Shown piece after piece: positions 18,816-36,686 of a DNA stretch of 64,000 nucleotides; position 1 is the first letter of the stretch; each line of letters starts with the position of its first letter. The position numbers and the translations under genes were made by a program. The stretch lies in the NCBI RefSeq assembly GCF_056746865.1, contig NZ_CM163382.1, one strand, 5' to 3'. Below the pieces are notes generated by a model, which worked only from the letters and a program-made list of their open reading frames with translations, was not told where the DNA came from and made no database searches.

Positions 18816-19721
18816 CTATATTTCCAGACACCTGTTATCACTTAACCCATTACTGGCCCGCTGCCGTAGATATTCCCGTGGCGAGCGATAACCCAGTGCA
18901 CTATGCGGATGCCATTCGTTATAATGCTCGAACGCCTCTGCAAGGTTCTTTGCTGCCGTTAACCCGTCTGGTTTAGGCATGATACTGATGTAGTCACGCT
19001 TTATCGTTTTCACGAAGCTCTCTGCTATGCCGTTACTCTCCGGACTCCGCACCGCCGTGTTCTTCGGTTCAAGCCCCAACATCCGGGCAAACTGCCGTGT
19101 TTCATTAGCCCGGTAGCATGAACCATTATCCGTCAGCCACTCTACTGGAGACGCCGGAAGCTCGTTGCCGAAGCGGCGTTCCACCGCTCCCAGCATTACG
19201 TCCTGTACTGTTTCACTGTCGAAGCCGCCCGTAGTGACTGCCCAGTGCAGTGCCTCACGGTCACAGCAGTCCAGCGCGAACGTGACTCGCAGTTTTTCTC
19301 CGTTATCACAGCGGAACTCGAACCCGTCAGAGCACCATCGTTGATTGCTTTCTTTCACGGCCACTTTGCCAGTATGTGCCCGTTTCGATGGCGGTACAGC
19401 GGTTTTTCGCTCAAGCAACAGCGCATTCTGGCGCATGATCCGGTAAACACGTTTGGCATTGATCGCAGGCATACCATCAAGTTCGGCCTGTCTGCGAAGC
19501 AGCGCCCATACCCGACGATAACCATACGTGGGCAGCTCTCCGATAACATGGTGTATACGGAGAAGCACATCCGTATCATCTGAGTGACGGCTGCGGCGAC
19601 CATCTTTCCAGTCATCGGTTCGTCTGAGAATGACGTGCAACTGCGCACGCGACACCCGGAGACAACGGCTGACTAAGCTTACTCCCCATCCCCGGGCAAT
19701 AAGGGCGCGTGCGCTATCCAC
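18816..19721 (-). CDS. insD: IS2 transposase OrfB
   Basis: 301 aa DDE integrase core. Confidence 0.85.
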
Positions 19722-20044
19722 TTTTTTGCACGCCCGTATTCAACGGCTTCTTTAAGGAGTTCATTTTCCATCGTTTTTTTGCCGAGCAGGCGCTGGAGTT
19801 CTTTAATCTGCTTCATGGCAGCAGCAAGTTCAGAGGCAGGAACGACCTGCTCTCCTGCGGCCACAGCAGTAAGACTTCCCTCCTGGTATTGCTTGCGCCA
19901 GAGAAATAACTGGCTGGCTGCCACACCGTGTTGCCGGGCAACAAGGGAGACCGTCATTCCCGGTTCAAAACTCTGCTGAACAATAGCGATCTTTTCCTGT
20001 GTAGTACGCCGTCTGCGTTTCTCCGGTCCTAAGACATCAATCAT
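19679..20044 (-). CDS. insC: IS2 OrfA
   Basis: 121 aa from [18 protein letters not shown]...; HTH protein. Confidence 0.85.
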
Positions 20045-20696
20045 CTGCTCTCCAATGACTAGTCTAAAAACTAGTATTAAGACTATCACTTATTTAAGTG
20101 ATATTGGTTGTCTGGAGATTCAGGGGGCCAGTCTAGGAGCATTAATACGCTCAGTTCATGTCTTATACAGGAATGGGCACAGGGGGAGCTGGCGTGTCAC
20201 TGCTGATTTTACGCATCAGCGTTCATGTATTTGCACTCTGATACAGAATGCTTCACAGCGCTCTGTTACCGGAGAGATTTACTCTCTTAGCTTACTCTGG
20301 CAAATCCTTTACGTTACTCTCTGATGACTTCTTATATTTATAATACCAATCAGACAGCCTTATCCCATCGGTGATATCAGTCTCCTCCTCGCCAGGAACG
20401 GGCTGACTCACTGTAACCACCTCCGAAAACAACTCTGCAATTATCAGAACGCTAGTTTTCCCCTTGTCTCACGAAAGTCCTCCCTCCTTTATCGCGCGTG
20501 CGTGCGGAAGCATCTTTTCGCAACAACCCCCCGGGATTCCGCTACGGCTCTGCCATCGCAATCCCCCCGTTTATCTCCGGACAGCCACATTCCCGATTAT
20601 TTTTTACGTTTCTCCCCGGTTGTTATGCCAGTGAAGGTGGCGCGCTGTTTTCATGACCACACCGGCTGGTTTAACAACATCCGGAGGAACATTCTC

Positions 20697-22168
<1,472 letters not shown>

Positions 22169-23182: not shown

Positions 23183-24667
23183 TTACTTCGCTCTCAGCTT
23201 ATTGTAGTGATAACCCGAGGTAAAAATACCAGAGACATCAGACAACTTTAAACTGGCTATCTGGGGAAGCAGAACATACATGGTTTTTCCTTCCGGCACG
23301 ACAGAAAGCCTGAACTGAGATTCAAGAATGTTCAGCAATGCGTTCAGTTTTTTCCTGTTTCTGAACCGGCCCGGGCCACACTGGAGAATATAATTTTTCC
23401 TGACACGGGGCGGGCATTCTCCGCGGCACTCCTCAATGAGCCAGTCGAACAGCTCCTCGGCGTCCTTCTGCTGCAGTTCAGATTCATCAGGTAACGCAAA
23501 TAATTTTTTATATTCATCTGTGTACCACGAACTTATTACGACAGCAGACGTCATGATATCGGCAGAGATTTTCCCTTCACCATAGCTGAAATACTGAAAT
23601 AACGCTGCAATTCTTGCAATGTTTTCTGTTTTTTTTGAAACATGTCCCCGAAACGGGCTTAAGGGTCCGGAAGGGGATAAATCCTGCTCCAGAACATTAT
23701 AGTGCTCAATAAATATTTTTTGCGCTTCAGGCGAAAAATGCAGACAATACCGTTCATCCTCACTGGATTTTTCAATACTGCCTCTGGCCAGTTCCATTAA
23801 TCGTTCATGAAATGCCGTTAATGATCCTCCCGGAATCACAGCTCCGTTAATAAAGCGTTTCCCCTGCGTGGTTGCAGGTTTACTGATAAGACAACGGGCA
23901 AGAAAACCACTGTCCCTGGCAACAGAACCTTTTCGCTCCATATATCGGTCAAAAAGACCGGGTTGCACCATGAGGGATAACGTCATTCTGGCATTTTCAA
24001 TCATCTGTTCGGGTTCATTCTTTCTGTCCACAGACAATACAGAGCCATCCCACATTTTGTTAATAAAAGGCAACTCAGACAGGGTATATCCATCAAATAT
24101 AATACCGGCTTCATCTGACATAATACCAACTGAACGCCATTTACCACAAAGCTGATTCTTAATTGCCGCAGTCGTGGCATCATTAAAAATGAATTTATAC
24201 CTCACAGGTTCTTCCGCACTGTTTTTCTGAAGTACTTCCAGTTGTCTGAGGGTTTCTGACTCATCCGCGCCTTTGCGGAGTTCTTTATTCAGTTTTGACA
24301 ACAATGCTTTTTTCTGAGCCTTTAAAAGCTCTTCCTTGTTTTTCCAGACAGCCAGTTCACTTTTGTATCTGGAATATAACTGCATCTCCTGCTGGTACAG
24401 GGGCTTCATTAATAATTTGTCCACTGCGGTTTTTCGTTCTCCGGACTCGGCAAGCGTCAGGAAAAAAAGAGAGACCGGCCCCCGCAGTGTATTCAGTCTG
24501 CAGACATCAATCAGATTCTGGCAGACAAGTGAAACAGCGCCCAGGGCAGACGCTGCCACAAGCCCAAGGGGAGCCTGCGTAATTTGCTGAGCTTCAATAA
24601 CGGCATCACGAATGAGTGGAGGCAGCGAACTCAGGGGAAACTCATCACAAGGCTGACCGAATGACAT
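23183..24667 (-). CDS. DUF3987-like protein (YfjI-like)
   Basis: 494 aa from MSFGQPCDEF...; resembles CP4-57 YfjI-type proteins; SD GAGG. Confidence 0.65.
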   Translation of the reverse strand: MSFGQPCDEFPLSSLPPLIRDAVIEAQQITQAPLGLVAASALGAVSLVCQNLIDVCRLNTLRGPVSLFFLTLAESGERKTAVDKLLMKPLYQQEMQLYSRYKSELAVWKNKEELLKAQKKALLSKLNKELRKGADESETLRQLEVLQKNSAEEPVRYKFIFNDATTAAIKNQLCGKWRSVGIMSDEAGIIFDGYTLSELPFINKMWDGSVLSVDRKNEPEQMIENARMTLSLMVQPGLFDRYMERKGSVARDSGFLARCLISKPATTQGKRFINGAVIPGGSLTAFHERLMELARGSIEKSSEDERYCLHFSPEAQKIFIEHYNVLEQDLSPSGPLSPFRGHVSKKTENIARIAALFQYFSYGEGKISADIMTSAVVISSWYTDEYKKLFALPDESELQQKDAEELFDWLIEECRGECPPRVRKNYILQCGPGRFRNRKKLNALLNILESQFRLSVVPEGKTMYVLLPQIASLKLSDVSGIFTSGYHYNKLRAK

Positions 24668-25897
24668 AGTAACCTCACTATACACAGATATAAAAGCACT
24701 GCAATTCTGGCTATTAATAGCAAAAATAGCAGTCAAATCAATATGAGGTAAAATTTTTTGTTGATTTAATGGTTAAATAATAACCACAGTGTATTTTGCT
24801 GCTGAAGAAAGACAAAATGAATCTGTGTGTCCCCTCCTTCCCTTCGGAGCACATCCACTATTCAAATTTTACACAACCACGTACGAACAAAAAGCATCAT
24901 CCCGGGTATTGCAGATACCGGTTTCCTGCCGGGAAGAATCATAAACAGAACACCGGGAATAACGCCTTCAGGAATCACCCCCCCTCCTGAAGAAGAATAA
25001 AATAAAGAAGACTACAGTTCCTGCACTGAATGCTGAGTACAATATTTTATGGACAGGATGACATTTTTATAAATAACAAAAACCATTTAATACTGATACA
25101 TCAATAAAATACTTCTTCCCTGCTGACACAGATAAAATGCACCATTTTTTCTTCAAATACTTCTGTATAATCGCCAGCCAATGATGAGAATGGATTAAAA
25201 TAACACTTCTTCGACAAACACAAAAACAGCCTTCATTTTACATCATCATCCAGTTTCAGTTAACCCCGGACGAGCGACAGTGTTTCAGTACAGGAATTAA
25301 AAGCCAGCTTTTGCTCAGTAAAACACACTCAACTAATAATATCTCAGCAGATATTATCCTGACCAGGACACCTCACATTACTGAATTCTCTTCCGACAGT
25401 ATCACTGCACAAATAAAAAAGAACGGGATAAATATTCAGACCGGAAGAATGGTGTCACAAAAGCATTTAATCATTACGCATGACCAGGAAGGGAAACACT
25501 TAACCACATGGTATCAACAGATATCATTACGTGTGCACTCTTATAAAAAACACACAGAAGAAGTAAGATAATTATAAACGTAAATTTAATATCTCCCACT
25601 GACATCTCCCCCACAATACACTAAAAAATACTCACAGCAGTAAACACAGATACACCTGATAATCATACAGCCGATAAATATTTTCCCCTTTACGGAGAAA
25701 TCAGCCTGCTGTTTAACAATAACGGCGTATTTTCATGGAAGGAGATCACCCAGTAACGGATAAGTCCTGATCTCCTTCATGTTAATACGCAACAATCCCA
25801 TCGATTCAAAACAATTTCAGACAGATATTATCTCCGTGAATCCCCCGCCACCTTTCCGGTGCGCGGGGTTTTGTCTTTTTTCACCGGGAATACATGT

Positions 25898-26770
25898 ATG
25901 AATCCGTCTGATGCCATTGAGGCAATTGAAAAACCGCTCTCCTCCCTGCCTTACTCACTTTCCCGTCACATCCTGGAACATCTGCGCAAACTCACCAGTC
26001 ACGAACCCGTGATTGGCATTATGGGTAAAAGCGGGGCCGGTAAATCCTCACTCTGTAATGCACTGTTTCAGGGGGAGGTCACCCCGGTCAGTGATGTTCA
26101 CGCCGGCACCCGGGAAGTGCGGCGCTTCCGTCTGAGTGGCCACGGTCACAGCATGGTTATCACTGACCTGCCCGGGGTGGGCGAGAGCCGGGACAGGGAT
26201 GCAGAGTATGAAGCCCTGTACCGTGACATTCTGCCCGAACTGGACCTGGTGCTGTGGCTGATTAAAGCCGATGACCGCGCCCTGTCTGTGGATGAGTATT
26301 TCTGGCGACACATCCTGCACCGGGGACATCAGCAGGTGCTGTTTGTGGTGACGCAGGCCGACAAAACGGAGCCCTGCCATGAATGGGATATGGCCGGCAT
26401 TCAGCCTTCTCCCGCACAGGCACAGAACATTCGGGAGAAAACGGAGGCGGTATTCCGTCTGTTCCGGCCCGTACATCCGGTTGTTGCCGTATCGGCCCGC
26501 ACCGGCTGGGAACTGGATACGCTGGTCAGTGCGCTAATGACAGCACTTCCCGACCATGCCGCCAGTCCCCTGATGACCCGCCTGCAGGACGAGCTGCGCA
26601 CGGAATCTGTCCGCGCTCAGGCCCGTGAACAGTTTACCGGTGCGGTGGACCGGATATTTGACACGGCGGAGAGCGTCTGTGTTGCCTCTGTTGCCCGTAC
26701 GGTTCTGCGTGCCGTCCGTGACACGGTGGTCTCTGTTGCCCGCGCTGTATGGAACTGGATTTTCTTCTGA
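25898..26770 (+). CDS. YeeP/YfjP/YkfA-family GTPase
   Basis: 290 aa from MNPSDAIEAIE...; P-loop GKSGAGKSS; precedes Ag43 as in CP4-44. Confidence 0.75.
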   Translation: MNPSDAIEAIEKPLSSLPYSLSRHILEHLRKLTSHEPVIGIMGKSGAGKSSLCNALFQGEVTPVSDVHAGTREVRRFRLSGHGHSMVITDLPGVGESRDRDAEYEALYRDILPELDLVLWLIKADDRALSVDEYFWRHILHRGHQQVLFVVTQADKTEPCHEWDMAGIQPSPAQAQNIREKTEAVFRLFRPVHPVVAVSARTGWELDTLVSALMTALPDHAASPLMTRLQDELRTESVRAQAREQFTGAVDRIFDTAESVCVASVARTVLRAVRDTVVSVARAVWNWIFF

Positions 26771-26884
26771 ACAGTCTGCCAGGGAAATGCCTGATAACAT
26801 TACGTTAACCAACTGAAAACATGACACAAACCCCTCATACTCCTCCTGTTTCTCTTGCGTGACCGCCTTGTCGTTAATAGAATA

Positions 26885-26928
26885 AAACGATCGATAAAAC
26901 AGGTATCGATCGTTGCTATCGATCGTTT
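26885..26928 (+). promoter_or_regulatory. Ag43 phase-variation switch (three GATC sites, OxyR/Dam)
   Basis: ACGATCGATAAAACAGGTATCGATCGTTGCTATCGATCGTTTAT about 220 bp upstream of flu start; GATC at about 26889, 26908, 26921. Confidence 0.7.
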
Positions 26929-27141
26929 ATAGTGGTTAATGGTCTGCGAAAAGGCAGCTGAATCTCTTCATCATGCAGAACGGAATTGCACACAACGGAC
27001 TGATACTTCTCTGGCGGATGAGAGAGGGGAAGCATTTATGTCCGGGAAAAACCACTTTATCTGAGCATGCTGTTTTGTACCTGCCGGTATCCACATTTGT
27101 GGGTACCGGCTTTTTTATTCACCCTCTGTAAGGAAAAGCTG

Positions 27142-30100
27142 ATGAAACGACATCTGAACACCAGCTACAGGCTGGTATGGAATCACATTACGGGCACCCT
27201 GGTGGTGGCCTCCGAACTGGCCCGCTCACGGGGAAAACGCGCTGGTGTGGCGGTTGCGCTGTCTCTTGCTGCTGTCACATCAGTCCCGGCACTGGCTGCT
27301 GACAAGGTTGTACAGGCGGGAGAAACCGTGAACGACGGAACACTGACAAATCATGACAACCAGATTGTCCTCGGTACGGCCAACGGAATGACCATCAGTA
27401 CCGGTCTGGAGTATGGGCCGGATAACGAGGCCAATACCGGCGGACAATGGATACAAAATGGCGGTATCGCCAACAACACTACTGTCACCGGTGGTGGTCT
27501 TCAGAGAGTGAATGCCGGAGGAAGCGTTTCAGACACGGTTATCAGTGCCGGAGGCGGACAGAGCCTTCAGGGGCAGGCAGTGAACACCACTCTGAACGGC
27601 GGTGAGCAGTGGGTACATGAAGGCGGGATTGCAACGGGTACCGTCATTAATGAGAAGGGCTGGCAGGCCATCAAATCCGGCGCAGTGGCAACCGACACGG
27701 TTGTGAATACCGGCGCGGAAGGGGGACCGGATGCGGAAAATGGTGATACCGGGCAGACCGTCTACGGAGATGCCGTACGCACCACCATCAATAAAAATGG
27801 TCGTCAGATTGTGGCTGCTGAAGGAACGGCAAATACCACTGTGGTTTATGCCGGCGGCGACCAGACTGTACATGGTCACGCACTGGATACCACGCTGAAT
27901 GGGGGGTACCAGTATGTGCACAACGGCGGTACGGCGTCTGGCACTGTTGTAAACAGTGACGGCTGGCAGATTGTCAAAAACGGGGGTGTGGCCGGGAATA
28001 CCACCGTTAATCAGAAGGGCAGACTGCAGGTGGACGCCGGTGGTACAGCCACGAATGTCACCCTGAAGCAGGGCGGCGCACTGGTTACCAGTACGGCTGC
28101 AACCGTTACCGGCATAAACCGCCTGGGAGCATTCTCTGTTGTGGAGGGTAAAGCTGATAATGTCGTACTGGAAAATGGCGGACGCCTGGATGTGCTGACC
28201 GGACACACAGCCACTAATACCCGCGTGGATGATGGCGGAACGCTGGATGTCCGCAACGGTGGCACCGCCACCACCGTATCCATGGGAAATGGCGGTGTAC
28301 TGCTGGCCGATTCCGGTGCCGCTGTCAGTGGTACCCGGAGCGACGGAAAGGCATTCAGTATCGGAGGCGGTCAGGCGGATGCCCTGATGCTGGAAAAAGG
28401 CAGTTCATTCACGCTGAACGCCGGTGATACGGCCACGGATACCACGGTAAATGGCGGACTGTTCACCGCCAGGGGCGGCACACTGGCGGGCACCACCACG
28501 CTGAATAACGGCGCCATACTTACCCTTTCCGGGAAGACGGTGAACAACGATACCCTGACCATCCGTGAAGGCGATGCACTCCTGCAGGGAGGCTCTCTCA
28601 CCGGTAACGGCAGCGTGGAAAAATCAGGAAGTGGCACACTCACTGTCAGCAACACCACACTCACCCAGAAAGCCGTCAACCTGAATGAAGGCACGCTGAC
28701 GCTGAACGACAGTACCGTCACCACGGATGTCATTGCTCAGCGCGGTACAGCCCTGAAGCTGACCGGCAGCACTGTGCTGAACGGTGCCATTGACCCCACG
28801 AATGTCACTCTCGCCTCTGGTGCCACCTGGAATATTCCCGATAACGCCACGGTGCAGTCGGTGGTGGATGACCTCAGCCATGCCGGACAGATTCATTTCA
28901 CCTCCACCCGCACAGGGAAGTTCGTACCGGCAACCCTGAAAGTGAAAAACCTGAACGGACAGAATGGCACCATCAGCCTGCGTGTACGCCCGGATATGGC
29001 ACAGAACAATGCTGACAGACTGGTCATTGACGGTGGCAGGGCAACCGGAAAAACCATCCTGAACCTGGTGAACGCCGGCAACAGTGCGTCGGGGCTGGCG
29101 ACCAGCGGTAAGGGTATTCAGGTGGTGGAAGCCATTAACGGTGCCACCACGGAGGAAGGGGCCTTTATCCAGGGGAATAAGCTGCAGGCCGGTGCCTTTA
29201 ACTACTCCCTCAACCGGGACAGTGATGAGAGCTGGTATCTGCGCAGTGAAAATGCTTATCGTGCTGAAGTCCCCCTGTATACATCCATGCTGACACAGGC
29301 AATGGACTATGACCGGATTCTGGCAGGCTCCCGCAGCCATCAGACCGGTGTAAACGGTGAAAATAACAGCGTCCGTCTCAGCATTCAGGGCGGTCATCTC
29401 GGTCACGATAACAACGGCGGTATTGCCCGTGGAGCCACGCCGGAAAGCAGCGGCAGCTATGGCTTCGTCCGTCTGGAGGGTGACCTGCTCAGAACAGAGG
29501 TTGCCGGTATGTCTCTGACGACAGGGGTGTATGGTGCCGCAGGCCATTCTTCCGTTGATGTTAAGGATGATGACGGTTCCCGCGCCGGCACGGTCCGGGA
29601 TGATGCCGGCAGCCTGGGCGGATACCTGAATCTGACACACACGTCCTCCGGCCTGTGGGCTGACATTGTGGCACAGGGAACCCGCCACAGCATGAAAGCG
29701 TCATCGGACAATAACGACTTCCGCGCCCGGGGCTGGGGCTGGCTGGGCTCACTGGAAACCGGTCTGCCCTTCAGTATCACTGACAACCTGATGCTGGAGC
29801 CACAACTGCAGTATACCTGGCAGGGACTTTCCCTGGATGACGGCCAGGATAACGCCGGTTATGTGAAGTTCGGGCATGGCAGTGCACAACATGTGCGTGC
29901 CGGTTTCCGTCTGGGCAGCCACAACGATATGAGCTTTGGTGAAGGCACCTCATCCCGTGACACCCTGCGCGACAGTGCAAAACACCGTGTGCGTGAACTG
30001 CCGGTGAACTGGTGGGTACAGCCTTCTGTTATCCGCACTTTCAGCTCCCGGGGTGACATGAGCATGGGTACAGCCGCAGCCGGCAGTAACATGACGTTCT

Positions 30101-30261
30101 CACCGTCCCGGAATGGCACGTCACTGGACCTGCAGGCCGGACTGGAAGCCCGTGTCCGGGAAAATATCACCCTGGGCGTTCAGGCCGGTTATGCCCACAG
30201 TGTCAGCGGCAGCAGCGCTGAAGGTTATAACGGTCAGGCCACGCTGAATGTGACTTTCTGA
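27142..30261 (+). CDS. flu: Antigen 43 self-associating autotransporter adhesin
   Basis: 1039 aa from [33 protein letters not shown] (extended signal peptide); repetitive passenger; C-terminal barrel ending ...NVTF. Confidence 0.9.
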
Positions 30262-30331
30262 TAATCAGGTCACTCTCCTTCAGGCCCCGGTCATCATGAC
30301 CGGGGCTTTTTACTTTCAGGGAGCAACAGAT

Positions 30332-30490
30332 ATGCCGGGTTGTACATCACGTTTATTGCCCGAAGGCCCTTTCTCACGCGAACAGGCTGTTGCCGTCAAA
30401 ACAGCTTACCGCAATGTGTTTACTGAAGATGACCAGGGAACATATTCCCGGCTGGTTATCCGTAATGCTGAAGGTCAGTTGCGCTGGTGA
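30332..30490 (+). CDS. DUF905-like small protein (possibly truncated)
   Basis: 52 aa ...[44 protein letters not shown]; family-like sequence continues past the TGA (CWNTA*). Confidence 0.45.
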
Positions 30491-33216: not shown

Positions 33217-33585
33217 GTGTCAGACACACTTTCCGGGACAACGCATCCCGATGACAATGACGACCATCCCTGGTGGGGACTACCCTGCACAGTGACGCCC
33301 TGTTTCGGCGCCCGTCTGGTGCAGGAGGGTAACCGGTTGCATTACCTTGCCGACCGTGCCGGTATCAGAGGCCGGTTCAGAGATGCGGATGCGTACCCTC
33401 TGGACCAGGCCTTTCCGCTGCTGATGAAACAACTGAAATTAATGCTCACCAGTGGTGAACTGAATCCCCGCCATCAGCATACCGTGACACTGTATGCGAA
33501 GGGGCTGACCTGTGAAGCCGACACCCTCGGCTCCTGTGGTTACGTTTATCTGGCTGTTTATCCGACACCTGAAACGAAAAAGTAA
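33217..33585 (+). CDS. cbeA: CbeA/YeeU-family antitoxin
   Basis: 122 aa from GTG (SDTLSGTTHPDDNDDHPWWGLPCTVTPCFGARLVQEG...); GAGGA SD. Confidence 0.75.
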   Translation: MSDTLSGTTHPDDNDDHPWWGLPCTVTPCFGARLVQEGNRLHYLADRAGIRGRFRDADAYPLDQAFPLLMKQLKLMLTSGELNPRHQHTVTLYAKGLTCEADTLGSCGYVYLAVYPTPETKK

Positions 33586-33674: not shown

Positions 33675-33733
33675 ATGAAAACATTACCCGACACGCATGT
33701 ACGGGAGGTATCGTGCTGCCCGTCTCCAGTCAC
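33675..33733 (+). pseudogene. cbtA: cbtA/yeeV-family toxin gene, 5' fragment, disrupted by IS21-family insertion
   Basis: MKTLPDTHVREVSCCPSPVT then the IS end; the reading frame resumes after the IS at 36371 (..TIWQTLLTRLLDQH) and then diverges from the family. Confidence 0.7.
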
Positions 33734-33832
33734 TGCGTATTCCGCTCTATTCGATCACGGATTGGCATCGAAGTCCGATCAGCGATTCGCATCCATTCGA
33801 TCAACCGGGAACTTAACTTTTTCTACCGCTTT

Positions 33833-34588
33833 TTAACGCGTTTTTTCGCTGCTTTCCACTACCGGGGGATTTTTCCTCAGTGACTCTCCCTGAAGGACCA
33901 CCCGGTGTGAGTTATGTACCAGTCTGTCCAGGATGGCATCTGCTGTTGTTGGGTTCTCCATCAGACCATGCCATTTATCTACCGGGAACTGGCTTACCAC
34001 TATCGTGCTGCTTTGTCCGTAACGATCCTCTATGAGCTCCAGAAGGTCATTACACTGGGCGTTACTTAACTGTTCCAGCCCCAGATCGTCCAGGATTAGA
34101 ACCTGTATTTTTTGCAACTGTTTCAGATATTTCAGCCAGCTGCCATCAACACGTCCCTGAGCCAGTTGTTCCAGTAATCGCCCGGTTCTACAGTACCGGA
34201 CGCTGTGTTTCTGTCGACATGCCTGTTCGCCCAGCGCATTGGCTATCCAGCTCTTGCCACATCCTGTCGGACCGGTTATCAGCAGGTTTTTCCTGTGGGT
34301 TATGTAGTGGCCGTTCAGCAGTTCTCTCATCTGTTCAGCCCGCAGACCTCTTGAGGCCGGATAGCGCAGCCCTTCCGGTGTTGCCTGGTATTTCAGGCCG
34401 GCATTTTTTCTCAACCGTGCCACACGGCTGTTTTCCCTGCTCAGAAGCTCGTCATCAACCAGCAGCGTCAGCCTTTCCTCGAACGACAGTTCGTCGTAGG
34501 TCTGAGGCGTTTCCCGCTGCCGTATCAGGCTCCCGGCCATCGCCGGGAGTTTCAGTTGGGTCAGTTTGTTTAACAGGTTATCACTCAT
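33833..34588 (-). CDS. istB: IS21-family helper ATPase IstB
   Basis: 251 aa from MSDNLLNKLTQLKLP...; Walker A GPTGCGKS. Confidence 0.85.
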   Translation of the reverse strand: MSDNLLNKLTQLKLPAMAGSLIRQRETPQTYDELSFEERLTLLVDDELLSRENSRVARLRKNAGLKYQATPEGLRYPASRGLRAEQMRELLNGHYITHRKNLLITGPTGCGKSWIANALGEQACRQKHSVRYCRTGRLLEQLAQGRVDGSWLKYLKQLQKIQVLILDDLGLEQLSNAQCNDLLELIEDRYGQSSTIVVSQFPVDKWHGLMENPTTADAILDRLVHNSHRVVLQGESLRKNPPVVESSEKTR

Positions 34589-34604
34589 ACTGTTGTTCCT
34601 TCTG

Positions 34605-36140
34605 TCAGTGGTAGTAGCCCGGACCACGCAGGTTTTCATGCTCTGAAGCATATGCCGGATGTTGTTCGCCCTGGCGGGATAATGGAAGCTCCAGGTTCTC
34701 CCGATGGTGACGCAGCAGATTGTCGATAAAGCGTCTGTCAGGGGCGTTATAGTGCAGGGCAACGTAACAGGCCTTTTCCAGCCGTTCCGGGCCGTATTTT
34801 TTCTGAAGTGCCAGCAGCCCCAGAACTGCACGATAAGCCAGTTCCGGATGGGGTTTTGCCTTCAGCATGGATTCAACCACCCGGCCTGTGGACGGGCCCG
34901 TACGTTTTCCCTGCTCGATCAGGCGTTCCGGTGTCCATGTCCCGTGCTGCCGGTGGCGCTCTGGCATGTGAAGCGGATTGGTTGTGTGTTTATATTCATG
35001 TGTGCTGCGCGGATGTTGCGCCACACACTGCCCCTTGTGCCAGAGCTGTACCACCGACTGCCCCGCCTTCAGTGACAGACGCTGACCGACCAGTTCGTGT
35101 GGAACGGAGTACCAGTGACGGGCATATTCAACGTGGTAGTCAGGGCCAACCTTCACAGCTTTGTATTCCGTGTATTCATAAGGTGCCAGAGGCAGCGGAG
35201 AGAGTGCTGGCGCATCCAGTATGCGGAAGCGTTCTGCACGGGTTTGATTGCCGTACCCCTTCATTGGCCGGTTATTCATGTCTGTCAGTAACTCCCTAAG
35301 GCGCGCATTCAGCGCCCTGAGCGTGTGGAAGGTTTCATTACGGATGCGGGCAAGAAGCCATCGTTCGACGATGAGGACGCCGTTTTCTGCTTTTGGTTTA
35401 TCTTTAGGTTTGCGTGGTCGGGCCGGGATGATAACCGTGCCATAGTGCTCAGCCAGTGCCTGATAACTGTCGTTGATGACAGGCTCATATCGATCGGCCT
35501 TTTTCACTGCGCTTCTGAGGTTATCGGGGATGAGCAGCTTCGGTACGCCGCCCAGGAAGGTCAGGCAACGGCTGTGGGCATTTAACCATGACATCATGTC
35601 CTGACCTTCGCACGCTTCAACGTAGGTATAGTTGGACGCCCCCATTACGGCCACGAAGATTGCCACGCGGCGTATCTCACCGGTGTCCGGATTAATAACA
35701 GGAACCGTAGGACCACAGAAGTCGATAAAAAGCTTTTCGCCGGCACGATGCTCCTGGCGCATGGAGAGACGTCGCGTTTTTTTCCACTCCCGGTAGCAAC
35801 GGCAGAAGTGCGAGTATCCCATCGCTTTGTTACCCGCCTGTGCCTTGTATTCCATCCACAACAGTTGCCGCGTCACACCTGGTTTTCTCATTTCCGTATC
35901 GAGGTACAACATGTCAGGCATTACAAGCTCTGATGCAAAGGTGTCTTTGGGCGGAAAAATGAGTTTCTCCAGCGTGTCATGGGATATATCAGCAGGTAAT
36001 GGCCATGACAGAGAAGAGGCTTTGAAGCGGGCAAGAACCTCAAAAACGGTTGAGGCGCTGATGTGTAACGTCAGTCCGATACAACGGTTAGTCAGCTTCT
36101 TGTCGAACTTGAGCTGAAGAATCTTAAAACAGGTTTCCAT
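34605..36140 (-). CDS. istA: IS21-family transposase IstA
   Basis: 511 aa from METCFKILQLKF...; HTH plus DDE core; AGGAG SD. Confidence 0.85.
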   Translation of the reverse strand: METCFKILQLKFDKKLTNRCIGLTLHISASTVFEVLARFKASSLSWPLPADISHDTLEKLIFPPKDTFASELVMPDMLYLDTEMRKPGVTRQLLWMEYKAQAGNKAMGYSHFCRCYREWKKTRRLSMRQEHRAGEKLFIDFCGPTVPVINPDTGEIRRVAIFVAVMGASNYTYVEACEGQDMMSWLNAHSRCLTFLGGVPKLLIPDNLRSAVKKADRYEPVINDSYQALAEHYGTVIIPARPRKPKDKPKAENGVLIVERWLLARIRNETFHTLRALNARLRELLTDMNNRPMKGYGNQTRAERFRILDAPALSPLPLAPYEYTEYKAVKVGPDYHVEYARHWYSVPHELVGQRLSLKAGQSVVQLWHKGQCVAQHPRSTHEYKHTTNPLHMPERHRQHGTWTPERLIEQGKRTGPSTGRVVESMLKAKPHPELAYRAVLGLLALQKKYGPERLEKACYVALHYNAPDRRFIDNLLRHHRENLELPLSRQGEQHPAYASEHENLRGPGYYH

Positions 36141-36686
36141 AGTGCTCCTGGATTTTCTCTTTCTGGACATTGACGTCTCCACTGGTTTAAACACGGCAAT
36201 GGAGACTGTGGTGAAAAGAGTTAATTCCCGGAGTGACTGGCAGGATGCCAATCAATGATCGGAAGCATGCCAAATCGTGATCGATTGTGATGCCAAACTG
36301 TGATCGGAGATGGATGCCAAATCATGATCGATTCGAATGCCAAACTGCGATCGATTCAGATGCCATTTTGCAGTCACCATCTGGCAGACACTGCTCACCC
36401 GGTTACTGGACCAGCATTCCCTGATTTCCTCATCGATATCGAATAAGCACTCGTCGCAGAATTCTTTATCGAGTGAGAGCCTCTGTTCAAGGACGCTTCT
36501 TTTTTTTGTTGCAACGTGCACATCCCTTCATCTTTCCGCGCCTTTGTGACCTCGTGATTTGGGGTACATGGAAAATGGGCGTAGCAAGCCTCAGCTAGAT
36601 AACTAACCGTAATAAAAGGGCTTTTCTGCGAGCAATGTAAGAGAAGGATAACTAGGCAGGTTGCAAGAAAGATAATCGTTTTGATA

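Follow-up and report, generated by a model that had tools for sequence, protein, structure and literature searches.

Whether an intact yeeP-like GTPase gene followed by a complete antigen 43 locus is a peculiarity of the strain that carries it, and whether the two genes work together, are the questions raised by a segment of contig NZ_CM163382.1 (NCBI RefSeq assembly GCF_056746865.1). The segment, 25898..30261, lies within the 64,000-nucleotide (nt) stretch that was analysed, called hereafter the window. It comprises a P-loop GTPase gene, the control region of agn43 (also named flu) and flu itself, which encodes the autotransporter Ag43 and is preceded by a leader RNA. An earlier note on this DNA had singled out the segment for its undamaged GTPase gene. 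The segment is very probably the left part of the conserved module of a CP4-44-type island of Escherichia coli in its common undamaged form. The GTPase–Ag43 locus is already known, annotated and very common, and the earlier description of it is correct. Its features are the following:

25898..26770 (stop included), plus strand: intact gene for a P-loop GTPase of the YeeP/YfjP/YkfA family, 290 amino acids (aa), identified from the open reading frame (ORF), Pfam, alignment with K-12 and an AlphaFold model.
26855..26883, plus strand: agn43/flu promoter read from the sequence, with a -35 element TTGCGT at 26855-26860, a 17-nt spacer and a -10 element TAGAAT at 26878-26883.
26889..26924, plus strand: phase-variation operator, with GATC-I at 26889-26892, GATC-II at 26908-26911 and GATC-III at 26921-26924, Dam targets inside a presumed OxyR site.
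26887..27123, plus strand: IsrC/IS102 RNA, the flu 5' leader, identified with Rfam RF00124.
27083..27116, plus strand: intrinsic terminator of the leader, a 12-bp stem GCCGGTATCCAC/GTGGGTACCGGC followed by TTTTTT, from a terminator scan.
27142..30261 (stop included), plus strand: flu/agn43, coding for the self-associating autotransporter Ag43, 1039 aa, identified from Pfam, NCBIfam, identity to K-12 and the match to 4KH3.

The commonness of this arrangement was estimated by comparing a 1.5-kb query, running from the GTPase gene through the spacer into the beginning of flu, with 5426 complete E. coli genomes. The query finds matches in 4588 of them. At least 80% of it, and hence the GTPase–Ag43 junction, is covered in 3405 genomes, at two places in the median genome. 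Such loci are labelled in RefSeq as 'GTPase family protein' beside 'autotransporter adhesin Ag43', and the genome of FDAARGOS_497 is 100% identical across the query. An intact GTPase gene is the norm among E. coli, K-12 being the exception. As it occurs in so many genomes, the intact state is not notable in itself.

The GTPase gene starts with the ATG at 25898. Its 290-aa frame with a P-loop, described earlier as intact, runs without any stop across 25898..26770, and a frameshift that might have escaped the first reading was looked for in the same interval and not found. A RefSeq genome with 100% identity carries the same coding sequence under the accession WP_001069760.1, named 'GTPase family protein', and the 99%-identity cluster of the protein gathers 18,190 member sequences. 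K-12 yeeP, which the note described as a pseudogene, is indeed annotated as such in the K-12 record, over 426 bp. In alignments, the translation of the yeeP remnant shares 98% identity with the last 141 aa of the GTPase, and YfjP and YkfA share 50-51% with the whole protein over its full length; judged by this, the window GTPase gene and K-12 yeeP are orthologs, the former being full-length. At the DNA level, K-12 is homologous to the window only from about window position 26218 onwards, around codon 107. Thus, K-12 yeeP results from a 5' truncation and not from a frameshift: the promoter, the P-loop and G3 are gone. The K-12 CP4-44 locus (yeeP'-isrC-flu; b1999, b4435 and b2000) has in common with the window the gene order, the flu promoter, the three GATCs spaced 19/13, the leader terminator and an Ag43 of 1039 aa, whereas it has lost the GTPase promoter, the leader of that gene and approximately codons 1-107, and carries another sequence type in the central ~150 nt of the flu leader.

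At the protein level, the Pfam domain MMR_HSR1 (PF01926) is recognized with 55.2 bits for a cut-off of 21.9, and the sequence resembles the G domains of Era, EngA and MnmE. The G1 motif GKSGAGKS is found at residue 43, the G3 motif DLPG at 90 and a G4 variant, TQAD, at 152. The family is broad: a threshold of E ≤ 1e-3 retains 2038 cluster representatives, and one of E ≤ 1e-30 retains 158. Within a set of 28 homologs, G43, G46, G48, K49, S50, D90, P92 and G93 are invariant; the G1 motif, the Thr-Arg of G2, the G3 motif and a 'DDRA' motif are invariant or almost so. The canonical G4 motif NKxD is replaced by TQAD (residues 152-155, window 26351-26362), most members of the family displaying [NTS]QxD with Gln for Lys. 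Because of this Gln instead of Lys, the nucleotide preference of the GTPase may be non-standard, and guanine specificity is not assured. The AlphaFold model is a confident one (predicted local distance difference test, pLDDT, 92.8). In it, the G domain comes after two N-terminal helices and is followed by a long helical hairpin at the C terminus. No segment of the protein is more amphipathic than the last helix (hydrophobic moment muH 0.71), and the C-terminal residues are WNWIFF.

A role in anti-phage defence was considered for this protein and rejected. Indeed, it has no significant match among the defence-system protein models of PADLOC, the weak matches being confined to the G domain (LeoBC, 1.7e-8; LeoA, 9.5e-5) and to parts of profiles of 560-600 positions. 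In PHROGs, it matches only families without known function. No functional study of yeeP, yfjP or ykfA was found in the literature, where one persister study mentions a yfjP deletion, with no notable phenotype.

Downstream of the GTPase gene, the flu promoter aligns with the K-12 sequence TTGTCC-17-TAGAAT, an RpoD-holoenzyme promoter assigned to isrC by genomic systematic evolution of ligands by exponential enrichment (PMC3946193). Three GATC sites stand just 3' of the -10 element, which ends at 26883, and their spacing of 19 and 13 bp is identical in K-12; the full triple-GATC switch that had been placed ahead of flu is therefore present. This spaced pattern occurs once in the window, for 0.02 occurrences expected by chance. 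The best match to the OxyR consensus here is moderate, with 13 of the 20 specified positions compared with 14 of 20 in K-12, and scores of at least 13/20 are reached at only 9 positions in the 64 kb (top ~0.015%). For agn43 of K-12, the competition between Dam and OxyR is an established mechanism. Homology and identical site geometry suggest that the window allele is switched in the same way. In such a scheme, the sigma-70 promoter TTGCGT-17-TAGAAT would initiate transcription at about 26889, and the three GATCs in the OxyR operator would fall at about +1 to +36 of the RNA, because K-12 isrC as annotated begins with the first G of GATC-I. After replication, OxyR bound to the unmethylated operator would block transcription (OFF), whereas methylation of the three GATCs by Dam would exclude OxyR (ON). 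Both states would be heritable, which would give rise to phase variation.

The product of flu is recognized by the NCBIfam model auto_Ag43 (NF033177, Ag43/Cah) with 1910.8 bits, well above the equivalog cut-off of 1200. It displays in Pfam the type Va architecture, with ESPR at residues 6-52, five AIDA repeat stretches, AC_1 at 573-690 and the Autotransporter beta-domain at 764-1015. The protein is 95% identical to K-12 Flu without any gap. Its passenger residues 52-551 align end to end with 4KH3 (E 1e-237), the closest solved passenger, which belongs to Ag43a of the uropathogenic E. coli CFT073. The window Ag43 is an allelic variant of the same kind as this protein and as the other solved passengers (7KO9, 7KOH and 7KOB). 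Based on the identity to K-12 Flu and on the full-length passenger match, it probably self-associates and thereby promotes autoaggregation.

The presence of the small RNA IsrC in the yeeP-flu spacer, which the earlier note had mentioned for K-12, is confirmed by the match of the Rfam family IS102 (RF00124) at 26887..27123, with 73.4 bits for a gathering threshold of 46, an E-value of 2.8e-10 and model positions 1-206 of 206 aligned. The leader terminator, with 8 GC pairs in its 12-bp stem, lies 25 nt upstream of the flu ATG and differs from that of K-12 by a single loop base. Since the 5' end of the RNA falls at the flu promoter and GATC-I, and since the terminator closes it shortly before the ATG, IsrC is, on these boundaries, the flu leader terminated ahead of the coding region. 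In ON cells, a leader of ~235 nt would be transcribed, and the transcripts stopping at 27083-27116 would constitute the IsrC/IS102 RNA. Those reading through would yield the 1039-aa Ag43, whose passenger would self-associate and lead to autoaggregation.

The Salmonella-type isrC (Rfam RF01387) was also tried as the spacer RNA and rejected. Its sole match in the window lies at 21938-22060 on the minus strand (150 bits), outside the yeeP-flu spacer, and corresponds to the 5' end of an orfA of the IS3 family of insertion sequences (IS), in ORF 21745..22092, with HTH_Tnp_1. The 'isrC' of RF01387 and the IsrC of E. coli, which is IS102 in Rfam, are different RNAs bearing the same name, and RF01387 is possibly an IS-derived Rfam family.

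The gene content around GTPase homologs indicates to which unit the GTPase belongs. Homologs of ~60% identity in Serratia, Yersinia ruckeri and Klebsiella aerogenes head a co-directional block. In this block, the GTPase gene is followed by variable genes (WYL/YfjR, YfjS/YafY, IrmA, YfjT), then by DUF932, antirestriction and RadC genes, usually DUF987, and CbeA with CbtA; DUF932 is missing from the Serratia block. No Ag43 gene is present in the blocks of Serratia, Yersinia ruckeri or Klebsiella aerogenes. In the window, flu is followed by DUF905, DUF932, Antirestrict, RadC, DUF987 and CbeA, as identified by Pfam. The K-12 proteins YfjP (CP4-57) and YkfA (CP4-6), of 287 aa compared with 290, have the G1/G3/G4 motifs and the C-terminal ...SVARAVW.. 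helix in common with the window GTPase. Their genes likewise stand at the head of a DUF932...toxin-antitoxin block, and share with it the promoter block and the leader hairpin upstream, but the sequence of the hairpin stem differs and the DUF932 gene comes directly next, without Ag43. As read from gene order, the GTPase gene opens a conserved block, and Ag43, with its own promoter, is one optional cargo placed after it. Conservation of the GTPase beside both Ag43 and toxin-antitoxin modules, as initially proposed, thus holds for the block that it heads down to CbeA/CbtA. It does not hold specifically for Ag43, which is optional in that position, as the other genera without Ag43 illustrate.

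This arrangement bears directly on the idea of a functional pairing of the GTPase with Ag43, in which the GTPase would control the secretion, the phase switching or the autoaggregation of Ag43. The two genes are neighbouring and co-directional in the 3405 genomes mentioned above, but such a pairing is highly improbable. K-12, the strain in which phase variation and autoaggregation were worked out, expresses a phase-variable Ag43 without an intact yeeP, the lost codons including those of the P-loop, so it is unlikely that the GTPase works for Ag43. Moreover, WYL, YfjS, IrmA or YfjT genes stand where Ag43 would be in the Serratia, Yersinia and Klebsiella blocks, yfjP and ykfA of K-12 lead directly to DUF932, and flu carries a promoter of its own. 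Our best guess, drawn from the amphipathic C-terminal helix and from the fixed first-gene position, is that the GTPase is a membrane-associated nucleotide switch serving the island itself. The spacer RNA has also been open to another interpretation, that of a stand-alone trans-acting small RNA gene that would be more than a terminated flu leader. K-12 annotates isrC as a non-coding RNA gene between yeeP and flu, starting at the first GATC; IsrC has an Rfam family of its own, and the leader folds more stably than its shuffles (z-score -3.0). Against it stand the two ends of IsrC, set by the flu promoter with the first GATC and by the terminator before the flu ATG, and the 2014 work of Wallecha on the agn43 leader which, as cited in a passage of PMC5389530, treats IsrC as the flu leader. 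In addition, at least two types of flu leader exist, with a common GATC operator and terminator and with an unrelated central part of ~150 nt (window 26926-27082 compared with L001 7354-7478). The central type of the window is found in 3452 complete E. coli genomes and that of K-12 in 1762. The seed would sit in this central part, and its two unrelated versions argue against a conserved trans target or seed. A separate gene for IsrC is unlikely. As a by-product of flu transcription, the terminated leader could still have targets.

Upstream of the GTPase gene lies a short cassette, which is the only element of the locus not found described before and which represents a modest regulatory observation:

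25805..25831, plus strand: promoter-like block read from the sequence, with a -35 element TTCAAA at 25805-25810, a 15-nt spacer containing the conserved TTTCAGACAGA and a -10 element TATTAT at 25826-25831.
25843..25881, plus strand: terminator-like leader hairpin found by folding, CCCCCGCCAC / GTGCGCGGGG at 25843-25868 with a T-run at 25869-25881, 17 nt before the ATG.

The promoter block is kept upstream of GTPase homologs in 29 regions, which represent 12 or more genera of Enterobacterales and include K-12 yfjP and ykfA, and the motif occurs once per locus at a constant position. Its mean pairwise identity is 0.71 (0.80 in the core), whereas it falls to 0.24-0.33 just upstream and amounts to 0.625 for the coding sequence, of which the best 38-nt window, at the P-loop, reaches 0.82. 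The block corresponds to TTGAAA-15-TATCAT, described as the RpoD-holoenzyme promoters of K-12 ykfA and yfjP (PMC3946193). The hairpin, with a folding free energy of -19.5 kcal/mol in the window, is conserved in another manner, its sequence identity being only 0.35-0.44. In 28 of 30 homologous leaders, a hairpin of -10 kcal/mol or stronger precedes a T-rich tail whose end lies 19-29 nt upstream of the ATG, whereas this is the case for 3 control regions out of 60 and for 5 shuffled sequences out of 150; the detection is energy-based, each sequence being folded separately, and a stricter perfect-stem detector found 13 of 30. At least eight unrelated stem sequences occur among these leaders, and one class, aligned alone, shows compensatory double changes in 5 of 12 pairs. 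The hairpin is not recovered by RNAalifold from a MAFFT alignment in which unrelated stem classes are mixed. The version of the cassette carried by the window exists in 4248 of the 5426 E. coli genomes, unannotated, and a search of 24700-27200 with Rfam at a permissive E-value returned no family matching the GTPase leader.

The ~80-bp cassette at 25805-25881 might act as a regulated attenuator and, by factor-dependent read-through, gate the conserved module in its entirety, from the GTPase to CbeA/CbtA, a proposal that we regard as possible but rather doubtful. Its architecture, in which a promoter encloses a conserved site and a terminator separates this promoter from the genes, recalls the antitermination cassettes of lambda/21 Q and of AlpA in Pseudomonas aeruginosa, the latter described in PMC7969949; the likeness is in architecture only. 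The AlpA protein of P. aeruginosa has a 21Q-like multi-helix fold (PMC9371919). If the attenuator reading is true, the agn43 leader, with the same layout of promoter, IsrC and terminator, would be a second such gate in the same island. Alternatively, the cassette may combine a promoter with a hairpin that stabilises the 5' end, or with a terminator that insulates the gene from upstream transcription, without any regulated attenuation; this explanation is a quite plausible one, if still somewhat short of probable. Some loci do have co-directional upstream genes, namely rnlB before yfjP and perR before ykfA, and no candidate for a Q- or AlpA-like antiterminator protein was identified. The K-12 Term-seq tables (Adams 2021) contain, among the rows listed, no 3' end in the ykfA, yfjP and isrC leaders, where the genes may be silent under the conditions used. 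Insulation fits less well with the window and with Klebsiella, in which the nearest upstream gene is on the opposite strand and more than 1 kb away. Likewise, the distance of the hairpin to the block and to the ATG is fixed and the T-run is kept in 28 of the 30 loci despite the turnover of the stem, and the promoter spacer is conserved approximately as well as the P-loop coding sequence, as expected of a regulator site.

Several observations were made around this cassette. Between the divergent YfjI-family gene (23183..24736, minus strand) and the cassette extends an AT-rich region of ~1.1 kb (24737-25800), in which no convincing ORF and no Rfam match were found and which is unannotated in the identical RefSeq genome. 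The usual cassette is missing from some distant GTPase homologs, such as those of Budvicia aquatica and Serratia oryzae. Upstream of the Budvicia aquatica homolog, three GATCs lie within ~50 nt (L038/L039, ~5885-5945), possibly by chance. Upstream of that of Serratia oryzae, ATATCGATCGTTAATATC (L036, ~5765-5790) recalls a half-site of the agn43 operator, where chance is possible too. In the betaproteobacterial Vogesella aquatica, whose homolog is ~40% identical, a terminator-like hairpin AAAGCCACCTTCGGGTGGCTTTTT (L046, ~5885-5912) ends 22 nt before the ATG; it may be the terminator of an upstream ORF ending nearby.

The flanks of the segment bear traces of mobile elements. On the left, a small ORF with the PF05930 Phage_AlpA helix-turn-helix (HTH) domain (20502..20909, plus strand) is flanked by two IS3-family elements (18816-22092), whose ORFs are all on the minus strand (18816..19721 with 19679..20089, and 20879..21925 with 21745..22092). 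Owing to these elements and to the PF05930 ORF, the flanks differ from those of FDAARGOS_497, although the GTPase-flu segment is identical. The island 'AlpA' was examined as a counterpart of the P. aeruginosa AlpA antiterminator and rejected, as it is a small PF05930 HTH protein of another fold, which has only the name in common. On the right, the small DUF905 ORF between flu and the DUF932 gene (30296-30490) is frameshifted according to the annotation of the identical RefSeq genome. Further downstream, the antitoxin gene cbeA is intact and ends at 33585. The toxin gene cbtA is cut after ~30 codons (ORF 33675..33836), the Pfam domain CbtA_toxin matching residues 1-28 only. An IS21-family element follows on the minus strand, with an istB-like gene within ORF 33833..34831 and an istA-like one at 34605..36251, the cut cbtA and this element together spanning 33675-36251.

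The locus is chiefly of use as an annotation check, as it provides an intact yeeP ortholog, identifies IsrC as the flu leader and reveals the clash of this name with the Rfam 'isrC'. Most E. coli carry CP4-type islands, frequently as several copies. If the gate upstream of the GTPase gene is real, it would give a handle on when the conserved island block is expressed and, thereby, on testing the role of the GTPase.

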